Notes: generated by a model not told the origin, from the sequence alone. A DNA stretch of 64,000 nt from Escherichia phage E26 (MN655998.1), one strand, 5' to 3'; shown: positions 3,944 to 52,971, counted from the stretch's first letter. Numbers and translations are program-made.

Positions 3944-5844
3944 CAAAGCAAAAGATTACACAAATTCCTGATATTTTTAATGCTGCTACATTCGATGAAA
4001 TTAAAAGCGCATTAACAGACTGGATGAGAAACCAGGAAGAATTTAAAGATTTTGATTTTAATGGTGCTGGTATTAACGTATTGATGGACTTGCTCGCATA
4101 TAACACTCTGTATATTCAGCAATTCGCTAACGCCGCGCTATATGAATCTTTTATCAGAACGGCAATTAAGCGTAGTTCAGTTGTTCAAGCCGCGCAAGAT
4201 TTAGGATATTTGCCAGCAAGTAAAACTAGTGCATCGACTACAATTATGTTGCACGTAACACATCCGCGAAATCCGGCAAGTATTCGAATCCCACGAGGAA
4301 CTAAATTTATTGCAAGTGTGGATCGCCAGACGTCTTATCCGTTTGTGACTACCGAAGACGTTGTGAGCGTTTTAGGTTCAAATGGTTTATATACGCCTAT
4401 GCTTAAAGTCGCACAAGGTCGTATTGTTCGTACAGAAATGTTATTTGATCCGAAGAAACAAATTCTGATCCGCGATCCTGATATTGACCGCGCTCAGGTT
4501 AAATTGTGGGTAGACGGTGCTGAATGGAAAGACTGGACGCGAGAAAGCATTGTTAATGCAACTGGCGCTAGTAATATTTTCTATATGCGTGAAACCGTAG
4601 ACGGTCATACAGAAATCTTCTTTGGTGAGGGTGAATCAACTTTATCTGCTGCTGGCGGTGCACTGGAAGCAAATTATATTGGTGGACTTAAGCCGTCAAC
4701 TGGCGCTAATATTGTTATCGAATATATCAGCACTAAAGGCGCGGAAGCAAACGGTTCAGTTAATTTCACATACGCGGATACCCTTGCATCTATCTCTATT
4801 GTTAAAATTATTGAGAATCCGACAAATGATCGTGATTATGTCGGTGCGGATGGTGGTGGTGATCCTGAATCAATCGAACGTATCCGTGAACTTGCTCCGG
4901 TAATGCGTGAATCTCAGCGTCGTTGTGTAACTGCTTCCGACTATGAGGCTTTTGTGTCTAGCCGTTTTGGTAGTATTGTTCAGGCGGTACAATGTTTCAC
5001 CGACCGAGAAAAACCGGGTTATGCTTTTGTTGCTGTTAAGCCTAAATCTGGCTTGCGCTTGACAACCGTTCAAAAAGAAGATATGCGGGATTATCTGGCA
5101 AAATATAACCTTGCCCCTATCACGCCGAGCATCATTGACCCTAACTATCTGTATATTAAACAGAATATTAAAGTTTCCTATTCAATCAACGACTTGTCAG
5201 AATCAGAGCAGTGGTTGCGCGGTGCGGTTATTGATCAGATTGATGCATATTATACCGACGAAGTGGAAATTTTTAACCAGACCTTTAGTAAGTCTAAAAT
5301 GCTTGCGCGTATTGACAAAGCTGATGTATCTGTGATAGGTTCTAGTGCAGAAATCGAGATGGTGCGAGAGATCGACAACTTCTATAAAGCACCGATGGCT
5401 GGAATCAAGTTTTTAAACCAGTATAAGAGCGGAATCAAGTCTAGTTCATTCAACTTCGAAAAGGACGACAAGCAATATCCGATCCATTATGTAAGTACAG
5501 AAATGAACAAAGAATCCGGTTTAGCTAAATTGCTGGTTGGACCTTTCCCTGTTGATTCTACAATCGCTTTACCGCACTATTCCGGCACTGATTTTGATAA
5601 AGAGGTTATCGACGGTGCGGACCTATACTTTGAGGTTGGAGAGGTTAAGCATTATGACGACCTTATTTCATGGGATCTGGGTAAACTGAATATCAATAGC
5701 GATCGCTTTACTGGTTCATATATTGAGTTGACAGCTAAACCGATTGCTGATAACATCTTTACTAAAGACGGTTCTTTGATCGTGTTTGAAAACGATCTCC
5801 GTCCTCAGTACACAACTATTAGTCTGGAGGCAATTGCTCAATGA
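3940..5844 (+). CDS. 6: baseplate wedge protein gp6
   Basis: 634 aa; strongly T4 gp6-like ([33 protein letters not shown]). Confidence 0.9.
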
Positions 5845-44305: not shown

Positions 44306-46035
44306 ATGACGCATTAACATCATTTCGCGGGATGCGCAAGGAAGCGGAAGAAAACCCGATTGATAAACTTAACAAATTAGATAAACTTGATTCTATTGAT
44401 AATTTGCAAGCCGCTACCGAATTGGTGGCAGAGACAGTAGAACAAAAATCTAATGAAGTTGTTGGTGCGGTAGAGGATAACACCGCAGCCAATGAATTGA
44501 CGGCAGAGAATACCCAATCTACCGCTGGCAATACCCAAAAAACTTATGAAGAATTGCAAAAACTCAATAATTTCTCTTCTCAGATGAATGAGAAATTACG
44601 TGGTTTTGGTGTTATGATGGAACGTAGATTTGGTGTTGTCAGTAAAATGGCTAGCGGTATTGGTGCGATTGAAGAAGCACTGAAAAAACCGGAACAACCG
44701 CAAACAATGCCATCACCTCAGCCAGTTTTGCCTACTGTACCGGAACAGCCTAATAATGACAACTATCAAGGTCTTCCAAAGAAAAAACCAGATGTTGAGG
44801 AACGGAAGAAAAAGAACGCCGCAGATAAGCGTAATGCGGATTCTATGGAAAATCTTCTTAAAGTTGTTCGTGGAGGATTTAAAGAAACCATAGGCATCTC
44901 TAATAAGGTCTTAGGGATGTTATTTAAGATCACCTTGACCGCTATGGCAGAAGCCGCAAAATGGGGCGCTATTTTGATGGGTATTGTTTTTGCCATCGAT
45001 ACCCTTATGATTCATTTCAGATATTGGAGTGATTTATTCGAAACACAATTCGATGAATTTATGGATAAGGCCGGAGAATGGGCTGGACCAATTAGTGATA
45101 TTCTAACAACTATTCGTCAAGTTCGAGATTATTGGTCTAAAGGTGAATATGGAGAATTAATTAAATCGCTGGTTATGGGTATTGGTGATGCATTCTATAA
45201 AACCTTTATCCAACTTGATCGAATTATCACTACTGGTATTGCTAAAATTCTTCGCATGATCCCTGGTATGGGTGATTATGCCGATAAGTTAGAATATGGT
45301 GCTTTAAAATCTGCTGTCGCTCAAGGCTATACGCCAAATGAAAGAGAACTCGAATTAATGGATAAGGTCGAGTCTGAACACGAAGAGGACAAATACGGGG
45401 AGCGCACAGGGTGGACCGGAAAAGCCCGTGATATTGGCGAAGCTATTGGGGATTCTATTAAGGATAAAGTTAACGAAGGTCTTGTTAGTCTGGGTTGGAG
45501 AGATCAAAAGGATGTTGACGCAGAGAAACGACAAGAAGAGTTAAAGCGCGGGGAATACAAGTCTGTTTCTGCTGAACAACGATCTGCTAGTCGTAAACTT
45601 AAAATTAAAAGCGAGGGAGCGATCAATAATATTAATGAAGTTATGGAGAATTTGAGCGGTGACTATGACAAAGAAAGAATGGGAGAGTTGAAAAAGGATA
45701 TTGATGTTTACCGTGAGAAAGTTCAAGATCCTACATTAGTTGAAAGTGATCGTTCTCAGTTAGAGCGTCTTATTGAAAAATTTGATGAGATGTATGCTGA
45801 TAAAACTAAGGGTGTTGTGCAAACACAGCCAGTTCCGGCAACTGAAACGGAAACAGCAAAACAAGCGGAGCGTACTGAACAAATGCAGAAACAAGCTGCA
45901 ATCCAGCAACAAACGACAAATCAGACCTCAAACGTAAATAATACACAAATTGTAACAAACAATAGAACTATTAAACAGGGTGCACCAACAACTAGAATTG
46001 ATGCCCCCGGTACAATTAATATGGGGAACTTTTAA
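44302..46035 (+). CDS. 29: baseplate hub / tail length determinator gp29
   Basis: 577 aa; size and position as T4 gp29 (590 aa). Confidence 0.85.
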   Translation: MNDALTSFRGMRKEAEENPIDKLNKLDKLDSIDNLQAATELVAETVEQKSNEVVGAVEDNTAANELTAENTQSTAGNTQKTYEELQKLNNFSSQMNEKLRGFGVMMERRFGVVSKMASGIGAIEEALKKPEQPQTMPSPQPVLPTVPEQPNNDNYQGLPKKKPDVEERKKKNAADKRNADSMENLLKVVRGGFKETIGISNKVLGMLFKITLTAMAEAAKWGAILMGIVFAIDTLMIHFRYWSDLFETQFDEFMDKAGEWAGPISDILTTIRQVRDYWSKGEYGELIKSLVMGIGDAFYKTFIQLDRIITTGIAKILRMIPGMGDYADKLEYGALKSAVAQGYTPNERELELMDKVESEHEEDKYGERTGWTGKARDIGEAIGDSIKDKVNEGLVSLGWRDQKDVDAEKRQEELKRGEYKSVSAEQRSASRKLKIKSEGAINNINEVMENLSGDYDKERMGELKKDIDVYREKVQDPTLVESDRSQLERLIEKFDEMYADKTKGVVQTQPVPATETETAKQAERTEQMQKQAAIQQQTTNQTSNVNNTQIVTNNRTIKQGAPTTRIDAPGTINMGNF

Positions 46036-47093
46036 TGAAAATTAGTGTTATCAATGATGCCGTTGATAGCTTTAAAGCGGGGGTTAAAACCTCCGCTGGT
46101 TTTACCTCAAAAAATAAAGGGAAAACATTAACCGCTCAATTCCCCGCTGAACGTGCTAGCGGTAATGATGCTAGCGGTTATTATATCAACGACTTATATA
46201 ATAATGGTCTGTTATTCACTGCATACGATTATACATCTCGTACTACTGGATCGTTGCGTGATTTCAGGAAAAAGAAAAATGTTGCTAGCGGTTTTGGCGG
46301 TAGCGTTAATATCGCTGGTTTTGATTTAAATTTGGGTGGGAGAAATGCTGCATTTGACCGAGAGGCAATTGCTAATATTCTTCTTCCTCGTAGTCAATCT
46401 GACGTTGACGCTGCTAGCCATAAGTTTAATGATGTTGGTGAATCTGTCATTTCTCGCGGCGGTGGTACTTTAGGCGGTGCTCTTTCTAATATGGCATCTA
46501 CTGCCGTTTTTGGTGGTATCGAAAGTATTACTGGTGGATACCTTGCCGATCACGGTGAACAGATTTATAATACTGCGCGAAGCATGTATGCGGGTGCTGA
46601 CGCACGAACTAAAAACTACGTATGGCATCTAACCCCACGTAGTATTGAAGACCTTCGCAATATTCTGATCATATACGAAACGTTTTTAGAATTGTCTTAT
46701 GGTTCTAGTGGTATTTCCAGCACCGCAAAAGAATTAAAAGCGGAAGTTGATGCGTGGTATAAAAATACACTATTGAGAAAATCCACCCCAGAGGAAGCGA
46801 AGAGAAATGATACTCTGTTTGAAGGGATCACCGATTTTCTATCAAACGCAATTACTGTATCTAACCCGACAATATGGATGATCTCTAACTTCGGTAAGCG
46901 TACATCGTTTGAAGGGCGTAGCGATGTATTTGGTCCCGCTCAGATCTCAAGTGTACGTCTGGACAAGTCGCCTGATGGTAAGTTTAATGGCCTTGCTATT
47001 TCTCCTAACTTGCCGAGTACCTTTGTTCTGGAAGTATCATTTAGAGAGATCTTGACACTTTCCCGTGGTACTATATTTGGGAGTGCGGCATAA
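46035..47093 (+). CDS. 48: baseplate tail tube junction protein gp48
   Basis: 352 aa; position and size as T4 gp48. Confidence 0.85.
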   Translation: MKISVINDAVDSFKAGVKTSAGFTSKNKGKTLTAQFPAERASGNDASGYYINDLYNNGLLFTAYDYTSRTTGSLRDFRKKKNVASGFGGSVNIAGFDLNLGGRNAAFDREAIANILLPRSQSDVDAASHKFNDVGESVISRGGGTLGGALSNMASTAVFGGIESITGGYLADHGEQIYNTARSMYAGADARTKNYVWHLTPRSIEDLRNILIIYETFLELSYGSSGISSTAKELKAEVDAWYKNTLLRKSTPEEAKRNDTLFEGITDFLSNAITVSNPTIWMISNFGKRTSFEGRSDVFGPAQISSVRLDKSPDGKFNGLAISPNLPSTFVLEVSFREILTLSRGTIFGSAA

Positions 47094-48025
47094 TGTTTGA
47101 TTTAAATGACTTTAACGAACAAGCCGCTAACCTTGACTTTCAGCGATCTAACTTATTCAGCGTGGCATTTGCCACCACTCCAAGTAATAAGACACAAGCG
47201 ATCCTAGAAAGTATGGGCGGTGCGGTATATGATATTATACCAAATGCATTAAATGACTATTTCGGGATTACTCGTGGTGATTATACTGACGCATTAACAA
47301 ATCTTGCTGTACAGGGTGTTAGGCGTGCTGTTGATTCATCTGGTGTCAAAAAGTATCTTTTAGGTGCAATGTCATCCCGCGTAGTTCAATCTCTTCTGGG
47401 GCAATTTGATGTTGGTACATATGCGCTTGACTGGTTCAATATGGCATATAAGACAAGCGGTCTTCTGGTGTATGCTGTTAAGGTTCCAGAAAACAGATTG
47501 AATTATGAAATGGACCGTAACCACAATGCGCCAAACATTCGAATTACCGGACGTGATTTCGATCCGCTTGTATTGAGCTTTAGAATGGACTCTAGCGCAT
47601 CAAACTATCGAGCAATGCAGGATTGGGTTAACTCAGTAGAAGACCCCGTTACAGGGCTTCGTGCGCTTCCTGTTGACGTTGAAGCAGATATTCAGGTCAA
47701 CTTACATAACCGAATGGGAGTTCCTCACACGATCATGATGTTTAATGGTTGTGTTCCTGTTGGTGTGAGTGCACCGGAATTAAACTATGAAAACAACAAC
47801 GAAATCACAACATTCGATGTTACTTTCGCATATCGTTCTATGCAAACTGGTGCTGTAGGAGAGCAAGCCGCGCGAGAATGGATTGAGGATAAGGCAATAA
47901 ACGCAATAACAAACACGTTCGGCAATAATTTACTTGATAGTGGGTTATCTGCTGCTGGTAATGCTTTATCGCGTCTAAATGGCGTTGGTGGGCGTGTGGT
48001 GAATACTGTCACTAACTGGTTCTGA
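47093..48025 (+). CDS. 54: baseplate tail tube initiator gp54
   Basis: 310 aa; tube-like C-terminal motif (TTFDVTFAYRS) as T4 gp54. Confidence 0.85.
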   Translation: MFDLNDFNEQAANLDFQRSNLFSVAFATTPSNKTQAILESMGGAVYDIIPNALNDYFGITRGDYTDALTNLAVQGVRRAVDSSGVKKYLLGAMSSRVVQSLLGQFDVGTYALDWFNMAYKTSGLLVYAVKVPENRLNYEMDRNHNAPNIRITGRDFDPLVLSFRMDSSASNYRAMQDWVNSVEDPVTGLRALPVDVEADIQVNLHNRMGVPHTIMMFNGCVPVGVSAPELNYENNNEITTFDVTFAYRSMQTGAVGEQAAREWIEDKAINAITNTFGNNLLDSGLSAAGNALSRLNGVGGRVVNTVTNWF

Positions 48026-48034
48026 TAAGCGAAA

Positions 48035-48058
48035 GGCGGGGATAATCCCCGCCTTTTT
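48035..48058 (+). terminator. rho-independent terminator after gene 54
   Basis: GGCGGGGA-TAA-TCCCCGCC followed by TTTTT. Confidence 0.7.
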
Positions 48059-48569
48059 ATTTGATTAAATCATCACATTGTTTGCGTAGTTTATAGCGAT
48101 ACTGTTTTGATTGTAGCAATTGAAGTTTTTCATAATCCCCTTCCTCATATGCAGCCGAAAGATCATCTTGATATGCTGCTTCCGTCCCGATTACACATAC
48201 TCCAAATTTTCTACGACGGTCGGCATCTTCCATTGCTTTGCGATTCATTTCTTCAATTGAATTTTCATGACCATAATAATATTCGTAAATGCGTTTCTTC
48301 TCTGCTTCTTTATCTGCCTTAATCTTTGCGATCTGTTCTGCTGATTCCGGTTGACGACCTAAACGCTGTAATGAGGCGTCTTTCTTTTCAAGGTAGTCAA
48401 TCACGCAATCTTCAACGCTATTAAATGGAAAACGTGACTCTTTCTGCCATCGTTCACATGACCGTACAAACTCGTGTGTATTCTTAGATGCAAGTGCCAG
48501 ATCATGCACAGCGCACCCATTAAGCATAGCCACTAAAGCCGCAAGACCAATCAGTTTAATCATTTTCAT
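48057..48569 (-). CDS. predicted secreted protein / lipoprotein
   Basis: 170 aa; signal peptide ending in a lipobox-like LNGC; start overlaps upstream stop (ATGA). Confidence 0.55.
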   Translation of the reverse strand: MKMIKLIGLAALVAMLNGCAVHDLALASKNTHEFVRSCERWQKESRFPFNSVEDCVIDYLEKKDASLQRLGRQPESAEQIAKIKADKEAEKKRIYEYYYGHENSIEEMNRKAMEDADRRRKFGVCVIGTEAAYQDDLSAAYEEGDYEKLQLLQSKQYRYKLRKQCDDLIK

Positions 48570-49390
48570 TTAGTCACCTCACCGAAAATTGTAAATTGTC
48601 TACGATTCTCATCACCGAAAGATTCTACTACGTCGTTTACCTTGACGCAAGTCCCGCGCGGTAAAATTACTTCACATTCGCAAGGATTCCATGCAATTGA
48701 CCCAACAACAAAACCTTTATGATCTTTTACGTCAATTACCCACGATACATTACAAGAATGTTGCATCTTTCCGGTCATGGATTCATATCGATTCTCACAA
48801 TAAAGGCTAGTGCTGTTTGATAGCCAGCCTCCAAAGATGATCGGTGTCATGCTGGTTGACACAAAGTTTTTAAAGGTAAATTCCTTATCTTCAATAATAC
48901 GCTCTATTGTCTGAATGTCAAGATGTTGACCGCGATAAAGAGTACCGTTTAACTTTTCGGTTTTATCCATGACGCAATCCATCAAATCAACAATCTCTGA
49001 TATCTCATCGGTCATGTCTTCTTCCCCTAAGAGAGCACCATTTACCCATTCGTATTGTTCAGACACATAATCACAGATTGCATTATATTCTGCTGGGGTT
49101 ATGTTGTTATGTTTGTAATGTTTGAATACATTATCTCCAAAGTCTTCGGAGTGTACTTCATACATCACATTAATGATTTTCTTGACAAATCCATAATCTT
49201 GTGTCTCACGCTCAAGGAAGCGGATAACCTTCACATAATCATCAAAGTTAATCTGATCGCTGATCATCTCAGTGATCATGTAACCATTAATCCCCTCAAT
49301 GTCATATGTTTCGATGTAATTATCCATACGTTCCATCATTGATTCGCGTGATTCTTCTGAAAGACGAAAATCCTGTAATTTCTTGAACAT
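48566..49390 (-). CDS. ADP-ribosyltransferase, short Alt paralog (Mod-like)
   Basis: 274 aa; R-S-E triad motifs LYRG, FVSTS and CECEVILPRG in the same order as in the adjacent Alt. Confidence 0.7.
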   Translation of the reverse strand: MFKKLQDFRLSEESRESMMERMDNYIETYDIEGINGYMITEMISDQINFDDYVKVIRFLERETQDYGFVKKIINVMYEVHSEDFGDNVFKHYKHNNITPAEYNAICDYVSEQYEWVNGALLGEEDMTDEISEIVDLMDCVMDKTEKLNGTLYRGQHLDIQTIERIIEDKEFTFKNFVSTSMTPIIFGGWLSNSTSLYCENRYESMTGKMQHSCNVSWVIDVKDHKGFVVGSIAWNPCECEVILPRGTCVKVNDVVESFGDENRRQFTIFGEVTK

Positions 49391-49468
49391 TTTAAGCCTC
49401 CCATATAACAGAAAACGGGGCTAGTATAAAACTAGTCCCCGTTTGAGTCAACCATTATTTCTTAAAAA

Positions 49469-51520
49469 TTACATTTTAAATTTATCTGGCATTGCGTCTA
49501 CAGATACCAGATCAGCGATAAGCTGACGTAGAGTTGCCTTATCTGCTTTCTTACGTTCGGTTTTAGCTTCGCTAATGAAGCTGGAGAAAGACAGGTCAGA
49601 AGCAGGTTTAACAACACCTTCACGGATGAATGCATCACCGTCCGCGATCATCTCGCCAGATTCTTGTAATGCTGCCAGTTCATTTTTGTTCATAATATGT
49701 GCCTCAATGTAATAAGTTTCTTGTGAATCCGTCGATGCCGTAGCACGAGTTACCGTATCAAAGGATAACACAACACCGCGAGGAAGTAAAATCTCGCATT
49801 CTTTGTAAGCAAATGCTTTGTTACCTACTGGCAAGACAGGGATGTTTTCCGCGCCAGCAATGGAGAAAGCAACATTAGCGCCACCTTCACCGCGAGAGCC
49901 AGCCATAGAATCAACACCAGCAACGGCACTAGCCACGTTTGCATTCCAGCCGCCAAAAATGTTAGGTGCAAGGGAAGTGCTCACATAGTTTTTAAAGTAA
50001 AACGCTTTTTGCTTACGTGCAGTTTCCCACATTTGCGACCGGAAGTCCATACCACGATACAGAATAGTACCCGGATCAAGTTTAACTCCATAGTTGGAGA
50101 AGGCATTATCCAGTGCATCGCACATCTTGACCAATTCTTCTGGATCTGCGATGCCTTCAAACTCTTCCAGCTTACGATCAGTTAGGAAGTTGTTCATATT
50201 GATGTATGCTGCATCGGCATATTCGCTCAATACAAAACCTTCCGCGCCAGGCAGATCAAGATCAATATCTGCCATCATTTCACCCATGTTGCTAGCAATT
50301 GCTTCAAACATACCGGAAGCAACATTACGTAGGGCATCGGTTTTAATCTGTGTGATGTGACTACGCAGCATTTCAGCTTTTACATCTGCTGGCATAGACT
50401 GGTCTACTCGATCCATTGCCAGGGCGGTGATCTTGTTTTCGAATACTTCCTCGCTCATGATTTCTTTTAAGCGTTTGATTGATGCTGCGATAACTTCCGC
50501 AGACAACGGATCATATTGATCCTGAACTTTTACCAGTTCGCTTACTGCGTATTTTGCATCGGCTTCGCTTTCAAAAATAGTACGCATGAAACCATAGCGA
50601 GTGATAATATCACTTGTCCAGTCATTCAGAGAACGGGCGGTTGAACGTTCTAAGGCTTGACGATCAATCAGAGTATTAAACTGTTTCTTAGGTTCGGCTT
50701 CGGTGATATCTTCTTCTGGTTTAAGATTAATTTTTTCTGGATGATTCACGTAGTCGCTGTTATATGTCGCTTGAGTTTTCAGCATTTCTTCTTTAGTCAA
50801 ACGAGATTTAGCCGCTACGCGTTGTTCTGCTTCCGCGTTTCGTTCTTCTTCTGACACAAGACTAGCCGCATATGCCTCATCTTTAGTCAGAGATTCACCA
50901 GTAGCCTTAGATACCCAGCGATCACCTAAATCACTTTCTACTTTAGTGAACAAGGATTCATCAAGTTTAATCCCTTTAATCTTATCAATCGCCATCCCGC
51001 GACGCTTGACAACAACTAAAGCGATCTTTTTGCTGGTCATTACTTCCTGCTGGAATACTTCAAACTTCGGTGTACGACGCACCAAACGCTCTATAACGCG
51101 CTTAACCAGTTCGGTCTTACCTTTCATGCGGGATACGTTAAAACGGAACATAACAGCGTCTAATTGCGCTTTACGGGCTGTTTCCATAACCACATCAAAA
51201 GCACTTGCCATAACTGCAATCGGGTTATCGCCTAGACCATTTTTAAGCTGTACAATACGACCGCTTTTGTTCATTTCGCACAGTACAACATGTGCGGTTT
51301 TGTCACCCATACGAATGATTTTAGGTGTTTTGTTGGTGAAGTTACAAAGACGGACAATCACATCTTTATCGCGTGTCTGTACTGCAAAAAGCTGTTTAGG
51401 ATTCTGCTTAGGCTTTAAGCACTGTACCGGAGCAATACTGCCAAAGTTTTCTTCCTCTTCCGTCAACAGCCATTTCTCGAAAGATTCAATCATTAGATCG
51501 TCGATTTCTAAGTTAAACAT
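49469..51520 (-). CDS. alt: ADP-ribosyltransferase Alt
   Basis: 683 aa; motifs LYRGMDF, YVSTSLAPNIFGG and YKECEILLPRG; size as T4 Alt (682 aa). Confidence 0.85.
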   Translation of the reverse strand: MFNLEIDDLMIESFEKWLLTEEEENFGSIAPVQCLKPKQNPKQLFAVQTRDKDVIVRLCNFTNKTPKIIRMGDKTAHVVLCEMNKSGRIVQLKNGLGDNPIAVMASAFDVVMETARKAQLDAVMFRFNVSRMKGKTELVKRVIERLVRRTPKFEVFQQEVMTSKKIALVVVKRRGMAIDKIKGIKLDESLFTKVESDLGDRWVSKATGESLTKDEAYAASLVSEEERNAEAEQRVAAKSRLTKEEMLKTQATYNSDYVNHPEKINLKPEEDITEAEPKKQFNTLIDRQALERSTARSLNDWTSDIITRYGFMRTIFESEADAKYAVSELVKVQDQYDPLSAEVIAASIKRLKEIMSEEVFENKITALAMDRVDQSMPADVKAEMLRSHITQIKTDALRNVASGMFEAIASNMGEMMADIDLDLPGAEGFVLSEYADAAYINMNNFLTDRKLEEFEGIADPEELVKMCDALDNAFSNYGVKLDPGTILYRGMDFRSQMWETARKQKAFYFKNYVSTSLAPNIFGGWNANVASAVAGVDSMAGSRGEGGANVAFSIAGAENIPVLPVGNKAFAYKECEILLPRGVVLSFDTVTRATASTDSQETYYIEAHIMNKNELAALQESGEMIADGDAFIREGVVKPASDLSFSSFISEAKTERKKADKATLRQLIADLVSVDAMPDKFKM

Positions 51521-51561
51521 TTTATATCCTCTAGTTGATAACCTATAAACCTATATTTATG

Positions 51562-51582
51562 AAAAGGGGGCTTAACGCCCCC
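51562..51582 (-). terminator. rho-independent terminator (GGGGGCGUUAAGCCCCC family)
   Basis: minus strand hairpin then UUUU, downstream of the 70-aa gene. Confidence 0.6.
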
Positions 51583-51587
51583 ATTTA

Positions 51588-51800
51588 TTATAATGCACCA
51601 TCGAGCAATTGCTCTAATGTGTATCCTGAATAGTCTTTTTCAATCAGGATATATTTTCCTACTCGTTTAATACAACCGCGCATTTCAACGTATTCTGCGT
51701 AGTTGATGGTGCGAGTTGTTCCATCTTCTAGCAAAGCAGTACCGATTTCGTTAATGCGGTCATAAGTTACGTCGGTAATGATGATTTCGATGTTAGCCAT
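51588..51800 (-). CDS. hypothetical protein (70 aa)
   Basis: ORF with conserved cassette leader and RBS. Confidence 0.55.
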   Translation of the reverse strand: MANIEIIITDVTYDRINEIGTALLEDGTTRTINYAEYVEMRGCIKRVGKYILIEKDYSGYTLEQLLDGAL

Positions 51801-51865
51801 TTGATACTCCTTAGTAGTTCGTTTCGGTATGGGTGTATTATGATATACACCCTCTGTTATGTCAA
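51801..51865 (-). promoter_or_regulatory. PeSL-like early promoter/stem-loop cassette a
   Basis: minus strand TTGACA, 17 nt, CATAAT with GGGTGTAT..ATACACCC inverted repeat, then conserved leader CCGAAACGAACTAGGAGAATCAA-ATG. Confidence 0.6.
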
Positions 51866-51871
51866 CAACTT

Positions 51872-52051
51872 TTAGAACATTTTTGAAATTAATTCTGCTT
51901 TGATTTCGCAGAGAACATCTAAAGATTTCTCGTCACCCGCTTTTGCTGCTTCTGATTGCATTTTTGAAATGGCTTCAACGTAAGTGCAATTATAAGCCGC
52001 TTGAACTTTAGCGATTGCGATGATTGCCGATTCGATGGTTAAGTGTTTCAT
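51872..52051 (-). CDS. hypothetical small protein (58 aa)
   Basis: below ORF-track cutoff; ATG preceded by the cassette leader RBS (GGAGAATCAAAC). Confidence 0.45.
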   Translation of the reverse strand: MKHLTIESAIIAIAKVQAAYNCTYVEAISKMQSEAAKAGDEKSLDVLCEIKAELISKMF

Positions 52052-52112
52052 GTTTGATTCTCCTTTCGTTTCGGTATGTGTGCATTATAGGGGATCACCG
52101 ATCCCCTGTCAA
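52052..52112 (-). promoter_or_regulatory. PeSL-like cassette b
   Basis: TTGACA, palindromic 17-bp spacer GGGGATCGGTGATCCCC (two GATC sites), TATAAT, conserved leader; -35 overlaps the end of the DUF262 gene. Confidence 0.6.
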
Positions 52113-52640
52113 CAACTTTTTTGAATTATTTTTTAATTGCTCATCTTGTAATAGAGCAATAACATGCTGGCGATGTTCTTCCGATTGAGGCACACCGAAA
52201 AAGTTTGTTTTGTAGAAATATTCTAATCGATCTTCTCGTGTGCTCTCTTCCATCATGATCGCGGGTAGTCCGAGATTTCGGAAACGTCGCTTTTCTGCTG
52301 GCGTAAAATCACTGTAATACAACATAGAATCATCATTACCAGCAATGCTAAACTCATCTTTCATAAAGGAGAATATTGCGTTTAAACGCTGTTTACCGTC
52401 CACGATTTCGATCTCATAGCGAGAGCCATCATCAATCTTAGCCATTGCGATAGCACCAACCGGAAAATCATTAATCAGGTTTTCGATAAACATACGTTTG
52501 TTTTCGGTGTCCCATACCAAAGGACGCTGATAATCTGGGTTCATGTTGATATAGCCATCTTCTAACCACGCCTCATAAACAGAGATGACAAAGTTTTTAG
52601 TATTGGTATAGTAACGGCGTTTAGGCGTTAAACGGTTCAT
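52095..52640 (-). CDS. DUF262 / ParB-like nuclease-domain protein (GmrSD N-terminal-domain-like)
   Basis: 181 aa from ATG (MNRL, AGGAGA RBS); motifs DYQRPLVW and DGKQRL; ORF-track start at 52676 is TTG. Confidence 0.6.
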   Translation of the reverse strand: MNRLTPKRRYYTNTKNFVISVYEAWLEDGYINMNPDYQRPLVWDTENKRMFIENLINDFPVGAIAMAKIDDGSRYEIEIVDGKQRLNAIFSFMKDEFSIAGNDDSMLYYSDFTPAEKRRFRNLGLPAIMMEESTREDRLEYFYKTNFFGVPQSEEHRQHVIALLQDEQLKNNSKKLLTGDR

Positions 52641-52641
52641 G

Positions 52642-52971
52642 TTATAGTCTCCTGAATGGATCATCACGTAAATCAATATCTTTTAAGAACTCATCCCATG
52701 AATGGCGGATATTGTTCTTAATTCTCCAGATAAGCGCAGGGATTGAACGCTCTCCCATCTGGAAGTAAGGATCATATGATCCATATGCCCAATATGCTAC
52801 TACAATTCCACAATCAGCGCAATAATATTCTATTTCACTTGCTGGCGACCAAAGTCCATCAATATGATCGGTGATCCTGCTTTCGATGTTATGGCTATGG
52901 CAATCAGGGCAACGGATGCAATGACCTTGTTTATCGTAATTTGACGTTAGCGAATACTTAAACAATCTCAT
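52642..52971 (-). CDS. Zn-ribbon protein
   Basis: 109 aa; CxxC..H and CxxC pairs (CIRCPDCHSH, CADCG); start overlaps upstream stop by 1 nt. Confidence 0.5.
   Translation of the reverse strand: MRLFKYSLTSNYDKQGHCIRCPDCHSHNIESRITDHIDGLWSPASEIEYYCADCGIVVAYWAYGSYDPYFQMGERSIPALIWRIKNNIRHSWDEFLKDIDLRDDPFRRL

Follow-up and report, generated by a model that had tools for sequence, protein, structure and literature searches.

Escherichia phage E26 (MN655998.1) carries, within a window of 64,000 nucleotides (the whole stretch of DNA that was analyzed), two adjacent genes for ADP-ribosyltransferases (ARTs) followed by a gene for a putative lipoprotein, and this arrangement raises the question of why two related enzymes are encoded side by side and what the third gene contributes to the locus. 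The three consecutive minus-strand open reading frames (ORFs), which the ORF listing gives as 51520..49469 (683 aa), 49390..48566 (274 aa), and 48569..48057 (170 aa), lie exactly where an earlier description made from the nucleotide sequence, denoted here as the sequence-only reading, had placed them, and they run toward the baseplate genes 29, 48, and 54, which lie convergently on the plus strand. The phage is a T4-like coliphage of the RB49 type (genus Krischvirus), and the locus represents its alt region. It lies well beyond chance, since a megablast search with 47800-51800 retrieved 58 phage genomes with 95-99% identity, all of them RB49-type T4-like coliphages of this genus, with vB_EcoM_011D4 (99.3%) as the closest match. 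The answer that we regard as probable, though far from certain, is that two ARTs of common origin divide their labor in time, accompanied by a predicted lipoprotein of the cell envelope.

Alt and its short paralog

The first gene (49469..51520, minus strand) encodes a protein which, judged by its sequence, is a full-length orthologue of Alt: an Alt-specific region at the N-terminus is followed by an R-S-E ART domain and by a C-terminal tail whose last residues are MPDKFKM. The sequence-only reading had attributed it to Alt by size, and the comparisons bear this out: it is collinear with T4 Alt over the full length (27% identity over 695 aligned positions, E 1e-60), matches PHROG 802 (Alt) with E 7e-180 over residues 16-683, and is 99.6% identical to RB49 Alt. 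The catalytic signature comprises LYRG (487-490, with R489), STS (514-516), and ECEILLPRG (574-582, with E574-x-E576), and the protein scores 37.3 bits against Pfam PF03496 (E 2e-9; gathering cut-off 23.4). With 683 versus 682 aa, it resembles T4 Alt in length, in the R-S-ExE site, in the ...MPxKF tail, in its genome position converging on genes 54-48-29, and in the terminator and late-type box upstream; it differs in being strongly diverged and in the sequence of that box (CATAAATA in E26, TATAAATA in T4). The tail is part of a C-terminal pattern (...DGD..ETG...MPxKF) common to E26 Alt, T4 Alt, and metagenomic Alts, and the N-terminus resembles T4 alt.-1 (E 2e-6) and alt.-2 (E 2e-10). Between E26 and PTE-Eco09, the ratio of nonsynonymous to synonymous substitution rates (dN/dS) of alt amounts to 0.09. 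A sequence search of the PDB found no Alt structure. T4 Alt, an NAD+--arginine ADP-ribosyltransferase assigned to the Alt/VIP2 family within the R-S-E clade, is packaged in the phage head and injected (PMC9503650; RefSeq notes), and the same head packaging and injection, together with host targets, are presumed for the Krischvirus Alt by analogy. Antisense inside alt, a plus-strand ORF of 200 aa with a GTG start was noticed (50946-51548); it is almost certainly spurious, because all coding evidence from profiles and dN/dS lies on the minus strand.

The second gene (48566..49390, minus strand), termed the short ART here, encodes a protein 100% identical to RB49p183 (RB49ORF183c) and matching PHROG 15144 with E 3e-198; it is the same gene, with no difference. 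It consists of an Alt-family catalytic domain and the helical region preceding it, equivalent to Alt residues ~330-602, and its match to PHROG 802 (E 3e-45) accordingly covers profile positions 330-602 only. Compared with T4 Alt (E 1e-22; 5.5e-16 to the phage’s own Alt), the Alt-type catalytic domain is present, whereas the first ~330 residues, whose absence had already been recognized from the sequence, and the C-terminal tail of ~75 residues are missing in the multiple alignment. The score against PF03496 is 59.3 bits (E 4e-16), above the same gathering cut-off. LYRG (151-154, with R153), STS (178-180), and ECEVILPRG (238-246, with E238-x-E240) follow one another in the same order as in Alt, as the sequence-only reading had stated for both proteins, and the LYRG arginine, the Ser-Thr-Ser, and the Glu-x-Glu are invariant across the two E26 ARTs and their homologues in a multiple alignment.

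The E-x-E form of the R-S-E motif marks the arginine-specific type of ART. An AlphaFold model of the 274-aa protein (predicted local distance difference test score, pLDDT, 82; predicted template modeling score, pTM, 0.79) was compared with known structures by Foldseek, which returned Certhrax, Vis, C3bot, CDTa, and iota Ia with E values from 3e-11 to 1e-9. The modeled fold, along with the Arg, Ser-Thr-Ser, and Glu-x-Glu residues, thus resembles the C3/VIP2/iota-like R-S-E mono-ARTs, and the protein is predicted to be an enzyme with an ART fold and an R-S-ExE site of the arginine type.

A tblastn search with the short ART retrieved 1217 phage records, nearly all annotated as Alt, among them 39 with at least 99% identity. 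Its dN/dS between E26 and PTE-Eco09 is 0.03, and the homologues in the seven metagenomic relatives examined keep a length of 264-288 aa down to 28% identity. The protein is thus best described as an intact, truncated paralog of Alt under purifying selection. In a neighbor-joining tree of the catalytic regions, all short ARTs form a single clade, to which the Alt domains encoded by the same phages do not belong; therefore, the duplication is old. Six metagenomic lineages have retained the three genes in this order (alt, short ART, lipoprotein gene), with the module converging on gene 54, even where identity has fallen to 28% in the short ART and to 26% in the lipoprotein; the short ART and lipoprotein genes overlap or abut there as well.

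A trace of the same kind of event is found in T4, where alt.-1 and alt.-2 (positions 4566-4951 of the T4 record L003), separated from each other by a stop codon, match the first ~120 residues of Alt with 56-62% identity. As in Krischvirus, a tandem duplication of alt has left its remains between this gene and gene 54; in contrast, the T4 duplicate keeps the non-catalytic N-terminus, whereas in the Krischvirus copy it is the catalytic half that stayed intact, and strong purifying selection acts on it. The retention of opposite halves in T4 and RB49-like phages suggests an ancestral full tandem duplication, and phage 44RR is reported still to have one (PMC1524935).

Regulatory elements and the predicted timing of expression

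Just before alt, an intrinsic terminator hairpin (51566..51582, minus strand; GGGGGC-GTTAA-GCCCCC followed by TTTT), detected by a terminator scan and by folding, closes the upstream early unit; a hairpin at the same place is also present in T4 and in the metagenomic relative L008. It is followed by the late-promoter-like box CATAAATA (51554..51561, minus strand), located ~40 nt upstream of the alt start codon, which agrees with the T4 late consensus TATAAATA in 7 of 8 positions. Boxes in the same position after the pre-alt terminator occur in T4 (TATAAATA), L008 (AATAAATA), and L014 (TCTAAATA), and by analogy to T4 the E26 box is considered a candidate late promoter of alt.

The 78 nt that separate alt from the short ART (49391..49468, minus strand) form a PeSL-type intergenic element. 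Starting with an AT-rich stretch, it contains a promoter scored 10/12 in a promoter scan (-35 TTGACT at 49451-49446, a 17-nt spacer, and -10 TATACT at 49428-49423), a hairpin (49442-49415; ACGGGG-A-CTAG / CTAG-CCCCGT, then TTTT) overlapping the promoter spacer and the -10 box, and the Shine-Dalgarno sequence GGGAGG of the short ART (49402-49397), all on the minus strand. The hairpin has a folding energy of -23 kcal/mol (z -3.35). Five lineages with short ARTs of 40-83% identity have the same -35/-10 pair and hairpin ahead of this gene; in the five-lineage alignment of the hairpin, 98% of cells pair, and compensatory changes affect 2 of the 10 pairs, so that conservation of promoter and hairpin sequence is directly observed. 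A sixth lineage, L014, presents TTGACA-17-TAGAAT upstream of the short ART, with a different hairpin.

As described by Arbiol et al. (2010; PMC2839356), the PeSLs of RB49 and phi1 show the same AT-rich stretch, consensus -35/-10 boxes with 17-nt spacing, a G-tract/C-tract hairpin between the boxes and over the -10 box, and then Shine-Dalgarno sequence and ATG, and for PeSLs other than the one described here promoter and terminator activity was demonstrated by reporter fusions. The E26 element, which may be among the ~51 PeSLs listed there, differs by preceding a conserved two-gene unit instead of a mobile ORFan.

It is supposed that alt is made late, as a head-packaged protein requires, from the ATAAATA box that, as in T4, follows a terminator and resembles a late promoter. 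Alt would be packaged into the head via its Alt-specific N-terminal region, injected along with the DNA, and would immediately ADP-ribosylate proteins of the host. Transcripts of alt would terminate at the hairpin that separates it from the short ART, while the embedded sigma-70 promoter would start a two-gene early transcript once the host RNA polymerase reads the injected DNA; transcripts from this promoter would escape termination, since they are devoid of the hairpin’s 5' arm. The short ART, lacking both Alt-specific ends, would not be packaged and would act as a newly synthesized early ART, with a timing resembling that of T4 ModA and ModB, though outside that family.

Downstream, a bidirectional intrinsic terminator (48031..48057) with a 12-bp stem containing 7 GC pairs (-19.6 kcal/mol, z -3.9) is common to the short ART-lipoprotein operon on the minus strand and to gene 54 on the plus strand. 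A comparison of PTE-Eco09 (L017) with E26 46035-48025 revealed a mosaic boundary at this terminator. The two phages are 99% identical in alt and the short ART, compared with 87% in gp54 and 78% in gp48 (synonymous divergence dS 1.7); therefore, the adjoining baseplate genes form a different recombination block.

Upstream of alt, two further PeSL-type elements were noticed on the minus strand, one at 51837-51865 (TTGACA-17-CATAAT, with the hairpin GGGTGTAT...ATACACCC) before a 70-aa ORF (51800..51588), the other at 52112..52084 with a perfect TTGACA-17-TATAAT. Both fit the dense PeSL arrays known from the RB49 hyperplastic regions. An Rfam scan of 47500-52500 yielded no match. In the same region, an ORF of 193 aa with a TTG start (52095-52676, minus strand; 172 aa as RB49p187) contains the stretch IVDGKQRLNAIFSF, which presumably resembles DGQQR-type ParB/DUF262 nuclease-related domains.

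The lipoprotein and its replaced alleles

The third gene (48057..48569, minus strand), equivalent to RB49p182 and belonging to PHROG 16112, encodes a predicted lipoprotein precursor. Its start overlaps the stop of the short ART in the sequence ATGA, as the sequence-only reading had noted, and is preceded by the Shine-Dalgarno-like GGTGAGGTGA, so the 170-aa protein may be translationally coupled to the short ART. The signal peptide with the lipobox cysteine Cys19 (48569-48513, minus strand), likewise recognized beforehand by its ending LNGC, is contained in the N-terminus MKMIKLIGLAALVAMLNGC, with a basic n-region (K2, K5), an 11-residue hydrophobic core, and G18-C19. The signal peptide, Cys19, the cysteines 38, 55, 125, and 165, and a GDY motif are invariant in 14 of 14 aligned alleles; the residue at +2 after Cys19 is Ala in 13 of these and Val in the remaining one. 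In E. coli, Ala at +2 predicts sorting to the outer membrane. A putative lipoprotein nature and a predicted location in the envelope are both well supported by these features, and the protein would be exported, lipidated at Cys19, and sorted to the outer membrane, with a disulfide-stabilized helical domain facing the periplasm. The name is used for relatives as well: the KFS-EC allele is called ‘Lipoprotein’ in UniProt, and one GenBank record has ‘putative lipoprotein’.

An AlphaFold model of the protein is all-helical (pLDDT 81). Foldseek returned no PDB match at E < 1, and with BFVD its own family only; searches of Pfam, NCBIfam, and PADLOC were negative, and PHROG 16112 carries the label ‘unknown function’. 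The name ‘outer membrane protein assembly factor’, carried by one allele in nr, was discarded, as no profile or fold search supports it. The family is tiny, with nine clusters in an indexed search and nine hits among 1.84 billion representatives in an exhaustive HMMER profile search. Eight of the nine profile hits are lipobox proteins of 103-174 aa, the exception (P0020) being a repetitive protein of 489 aa, and the two hits whose contigs were checked (P0022 and P0025) reside in the same phage context. A tblastn search of 72,556 plasmids with the lipoprotein found nothing, and neither this nor the profile search revealed a relative beyond phage contexts.

The mature part of the lipoprotein coincides with a hypervariable segment (48070..48535, minus strand). 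In an alignment of E26 with RB49, all 60-column windows outside ~48020-48560 show at least 90% identity, whereas those between 48080 and 48561 drop to 15-68%; at the protein level, the lipoprotein is 34% identical to its RB49 counterpart, compared with 100% each for the Alt C-terminus, the short ART, and gp54. The 58 genomes contain at least five allele classes (100, 91, 46-48, 32-33, and ~29% identity). The alleles are mosaic, with varying combinations of signal peptide and mature part, and the two signal-peptide types, of which the RB49-type alleles carry the canonical L-T-G-C, are exchanged between alleles. This variation amounts to a replacement of alleles in the manner of cassettes, as genes in conflict typically show. 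The mature part would be swapped by recombination between otherwise identical phages, which points to an interaction under conflict, for example with competing phages or with envelope factors of the host.

As T4 Sp, T4 Imm, and T5 Llp, the lipoprotein is small, predicted to be early and exported, and diversifies fast between close relatives; it differs from these proteins and from Cor in that the searches of Pfam, NCBIfam, PADLOC, PDB, and BFVD revealed no sequence or fold similarity to them. Homologues of T4 Sp and Imm were not detected in a composite RB49 genome (RB49 1-64 kb, the E26 stretch, and RB49 126.5-164 kb), which leaves room for a different exclusion factor, and the lipoprotein is a possible candidate for an exclusion role. 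Receptor masking in the manner of Llp was considered as well and rejected, since the lipoprotein allele does not co-vary with the class of the gp38 adhesin, albeit in a weak test: the E26-type lipoprotein occurs with gp38 of 80%, 83%, 96%, and 98% identity to RB49, the RB49-type with 81-100%.

Alternative explanations and meaning of the locus

Several points weigh against a division of labor in time combined with an envelope lipoprotein. The exact late consensus TATAAATA is absent near alt in E26, where the box reads CATAAATA. A generic promoter scan gave 15 promoters compared with 12.3 expected from shuffles and hence no enrichment, so that the case for the embedded promoter rests on its conservation. 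In the metagenomic relative L016 (ERZ27260015), the gap between alt and the short ART (1500-1529) is 26 nt, with TTGACA, no -10 box, and no hairpin; the short enzyme is there probably co-transcribed with alt, and early-only expression is therefore not universal. In E26 itself, the short ART could also be expressed late if transcription continues through the hairpin. Concerning the lipoprotein, the Asn at -2 of the E26 lipobox L-N-G-C falls outside the strict consensus [LVI][ASTVI][GAS]C, and its dN/dS in one close allele pair (0.25) is above that of its neighbors and shows no positive selection. Finally, a literature search retrieved no data on transcripts, virion proteomes, or enzyme activity from any Krischvirus, so expression timing and the packaging or non-packaging of the two ARTs are what we infer, as are enzyme targets and the lipidation, localization, and role of the lipoprotein.

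Concerning descent, the sequence-only reading had called the short enzyme Mod-type, and its small size, the lack of a packaging region, and the predicted early promoter would agree with a true member of the ModA/ModB family that moved next to alt. The short ART indeed shares with T4 ModA and ModB the character of a small R-S-E ART, the missing packaging region, and the predicted sigma-70 early promoter, and RB49 has three ARTs in all, as T4. A sequence relation is not detectable, however: BLASTP gave no match to T4 ModA or ModB (E > 5), compared with 1e-22 to T4 Alt, and no Mod PHROG appears among the PHROG matches. Searches of the composite RB49 genome with Alt and Mod hidden Markov models (HMMs) and tblastn yielded exactly three ART genes, i.e. 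alt, the short ART, and a modB-like gene, and no modA, whose place in T4 is occupied in RB49 by gene 56. The Mod HMM matches the srd-adjacent gene only, which holds the Mod locus as the syntenic modB-like orthologue; its 167-aa product (L012 8917-9420) keeps LYRG, S, and E-x-E and resembles ModB (E 1e-9) more than ModA (E 3e-5). With BLASTP and the Mod HMM negative, membership in the Mod family is ruled out at the sequence level and such an origin is very improbable; of the Mod-type designation, the descent falls, and a Mod-like timing stays plausible through the conserved sigma-70 promoter. Decay is another conceivable fate, since at the same place T4 has a partial duplicate of alt that is degenerate and interrupted by a stop codon, and tandem alt duplicates recur in T4-like phages (PMC1524935), so that the 274-aa ORF might be a frameshifted or truncated remnant like alt.-1/alt.-2. 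This idea is scarcely credible and effectively refuted, because the dN/dS is even below that of alt, the catalytic residues are all invariant, near-identical copies recur in 39 phage records, the length is kept in divergent relatives, and the gene has its own Shine-Dalgarno sequence and promoter and a confident fold model; the sequence-only reading had itself raised the frameshifted fragment as the case to be excluded.

Alternatively, the short ART could be a second packaged or late enzyme, expressed by read-through from alt, loaded into the head, and injected, so that two ARTs with different targets are delivered. Its position directly downstream of alt on the same strand, the L016 arrangement, implying co-transcription, and the head delivery of many phage ARTs (PMC9503650) speak for this, whereas the strong hairpin with its T-run separates the genes, and five lineages have kept a consensus sigma-70 promoter. 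The protein also lacks the Alt N-terminal region, including the part conserved with alt.-1/alt.-2, as well as the C-terminal tail. A common capsid-targeting N-terminal peptide was considered, as MAFFT aligned the first residues of both proteins, and was dropped: only ‘MF’ is common, and past it no N-terminal similarity exists. Delivery of both enzymes thus appears unlikely, though it retains some weight. A functional coupling of ART and lipoprotein, the latter as immunity or partner protein or both acting on a common envelope-related target, would agree with their joint inheritance as overlapping or abutting genes in every lineage examined (the ART down to 28%, the lipoprotein down to 26% identity). 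Nevertheless, the enzyme has no signal peptide and its partner is exported, placing them in different predicted compartments; lipoprotein alleles of 34% identity stand beside an ART of 100% identity, which argues against a tight co-adapted protein-protein interface, and neither Pfam, NCBIfam, PADLOC, nor Foldseek relates the lipoprotein to ART immunity proteins or ADP-ribosylhydrolases. Such a pair is consequently considered improbable. Typical outer-membrane spanins are about one third the size of the 170-aa protein. As a phage-encoded, predicted outer-membrane lipoprotein, it might still be taken for such a lysis protein, yet it is not the spanin, because RB49 already has the spanin pair pseT.2 and pseT.3 elsewhere; moreover, it is helical and not proline-rich, no inner-membrane spanin gene is adjacent, and its gene lies behind a predicted early promoter, all of which renders this function close to negligible.

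The division of labor between an injected Alt and an early short ART, with an envelope lipoprotein beside them, therefore remains our preferred explanation. A bolder version, which we consider doubtful, regards the two downstream genes as a conserved early ‘take-over plus envelope’ operon of RB49-like phages, in which the short ART fills the role of ModA and the lipoprotein represents a new superinfection-exclusion or anti-defence family in phages lacking Sp and Imm. If true, a truncated copy of Alt would give a second, post-injection wave of ADP-ribosylation, i.e. the same job done by an enzyme of different ancestry, and the replaced lipoprotein alleles would be the trace of an arms race among Krischviruses that circulate together.

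Tandem ARTs as such are already known from the annotation of RB49 and related phages, and the novelty implied by the sequence-only reading does not hold. The RefSeq counterparts in RB49 are alt (RB49p184), RB49p183, and RB49p182 (hypothetical), of which RB49p183 is annotated, there and in the original GenBank record, as ‘ADP-ribosyltransferase; similar to C-terminal part of T4 Alt protein’, and RB49ORF183c, 44RRORF188c, and T4 alt.-1 and alt.-2 were described as paralogous duplications of alt (Nolan et al., 2006; PMC1524935). Because of these records, the central observation is not new, and a literature search found no experiment on the short ART or the 170-aa lipoprotein. We found no earlier description of the promoter and terminator arrangement predicting a late/early split, of the three-gene module in divergent relatives, of the opposite outcomes of the alt duplication in T4 and RB49, or of the allelic replacement of the lipoprotein, all of which are incremental.

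The finding is largely ordinary and matters little for discovery. For the biology of these phages, the locus may present one duplicated effector gene that was split into a packaged, injected form and a post-injection form, and the reciprocal halves kept in T4 and RB49 are usable to map which part of Alt mediates head packaging. Work on T4 ARTs, e.g. on RNAylation by ModB, illustrates that such enzymes can hold surprises, which bears on the short ART and the Krischvirus Alt alike. The lipoprotein, as a lineage-restricted, predicted envelope protein, is a reasonable candidate for a factor in phage-phage or phage-host conflict in phages that are now used for therapy.

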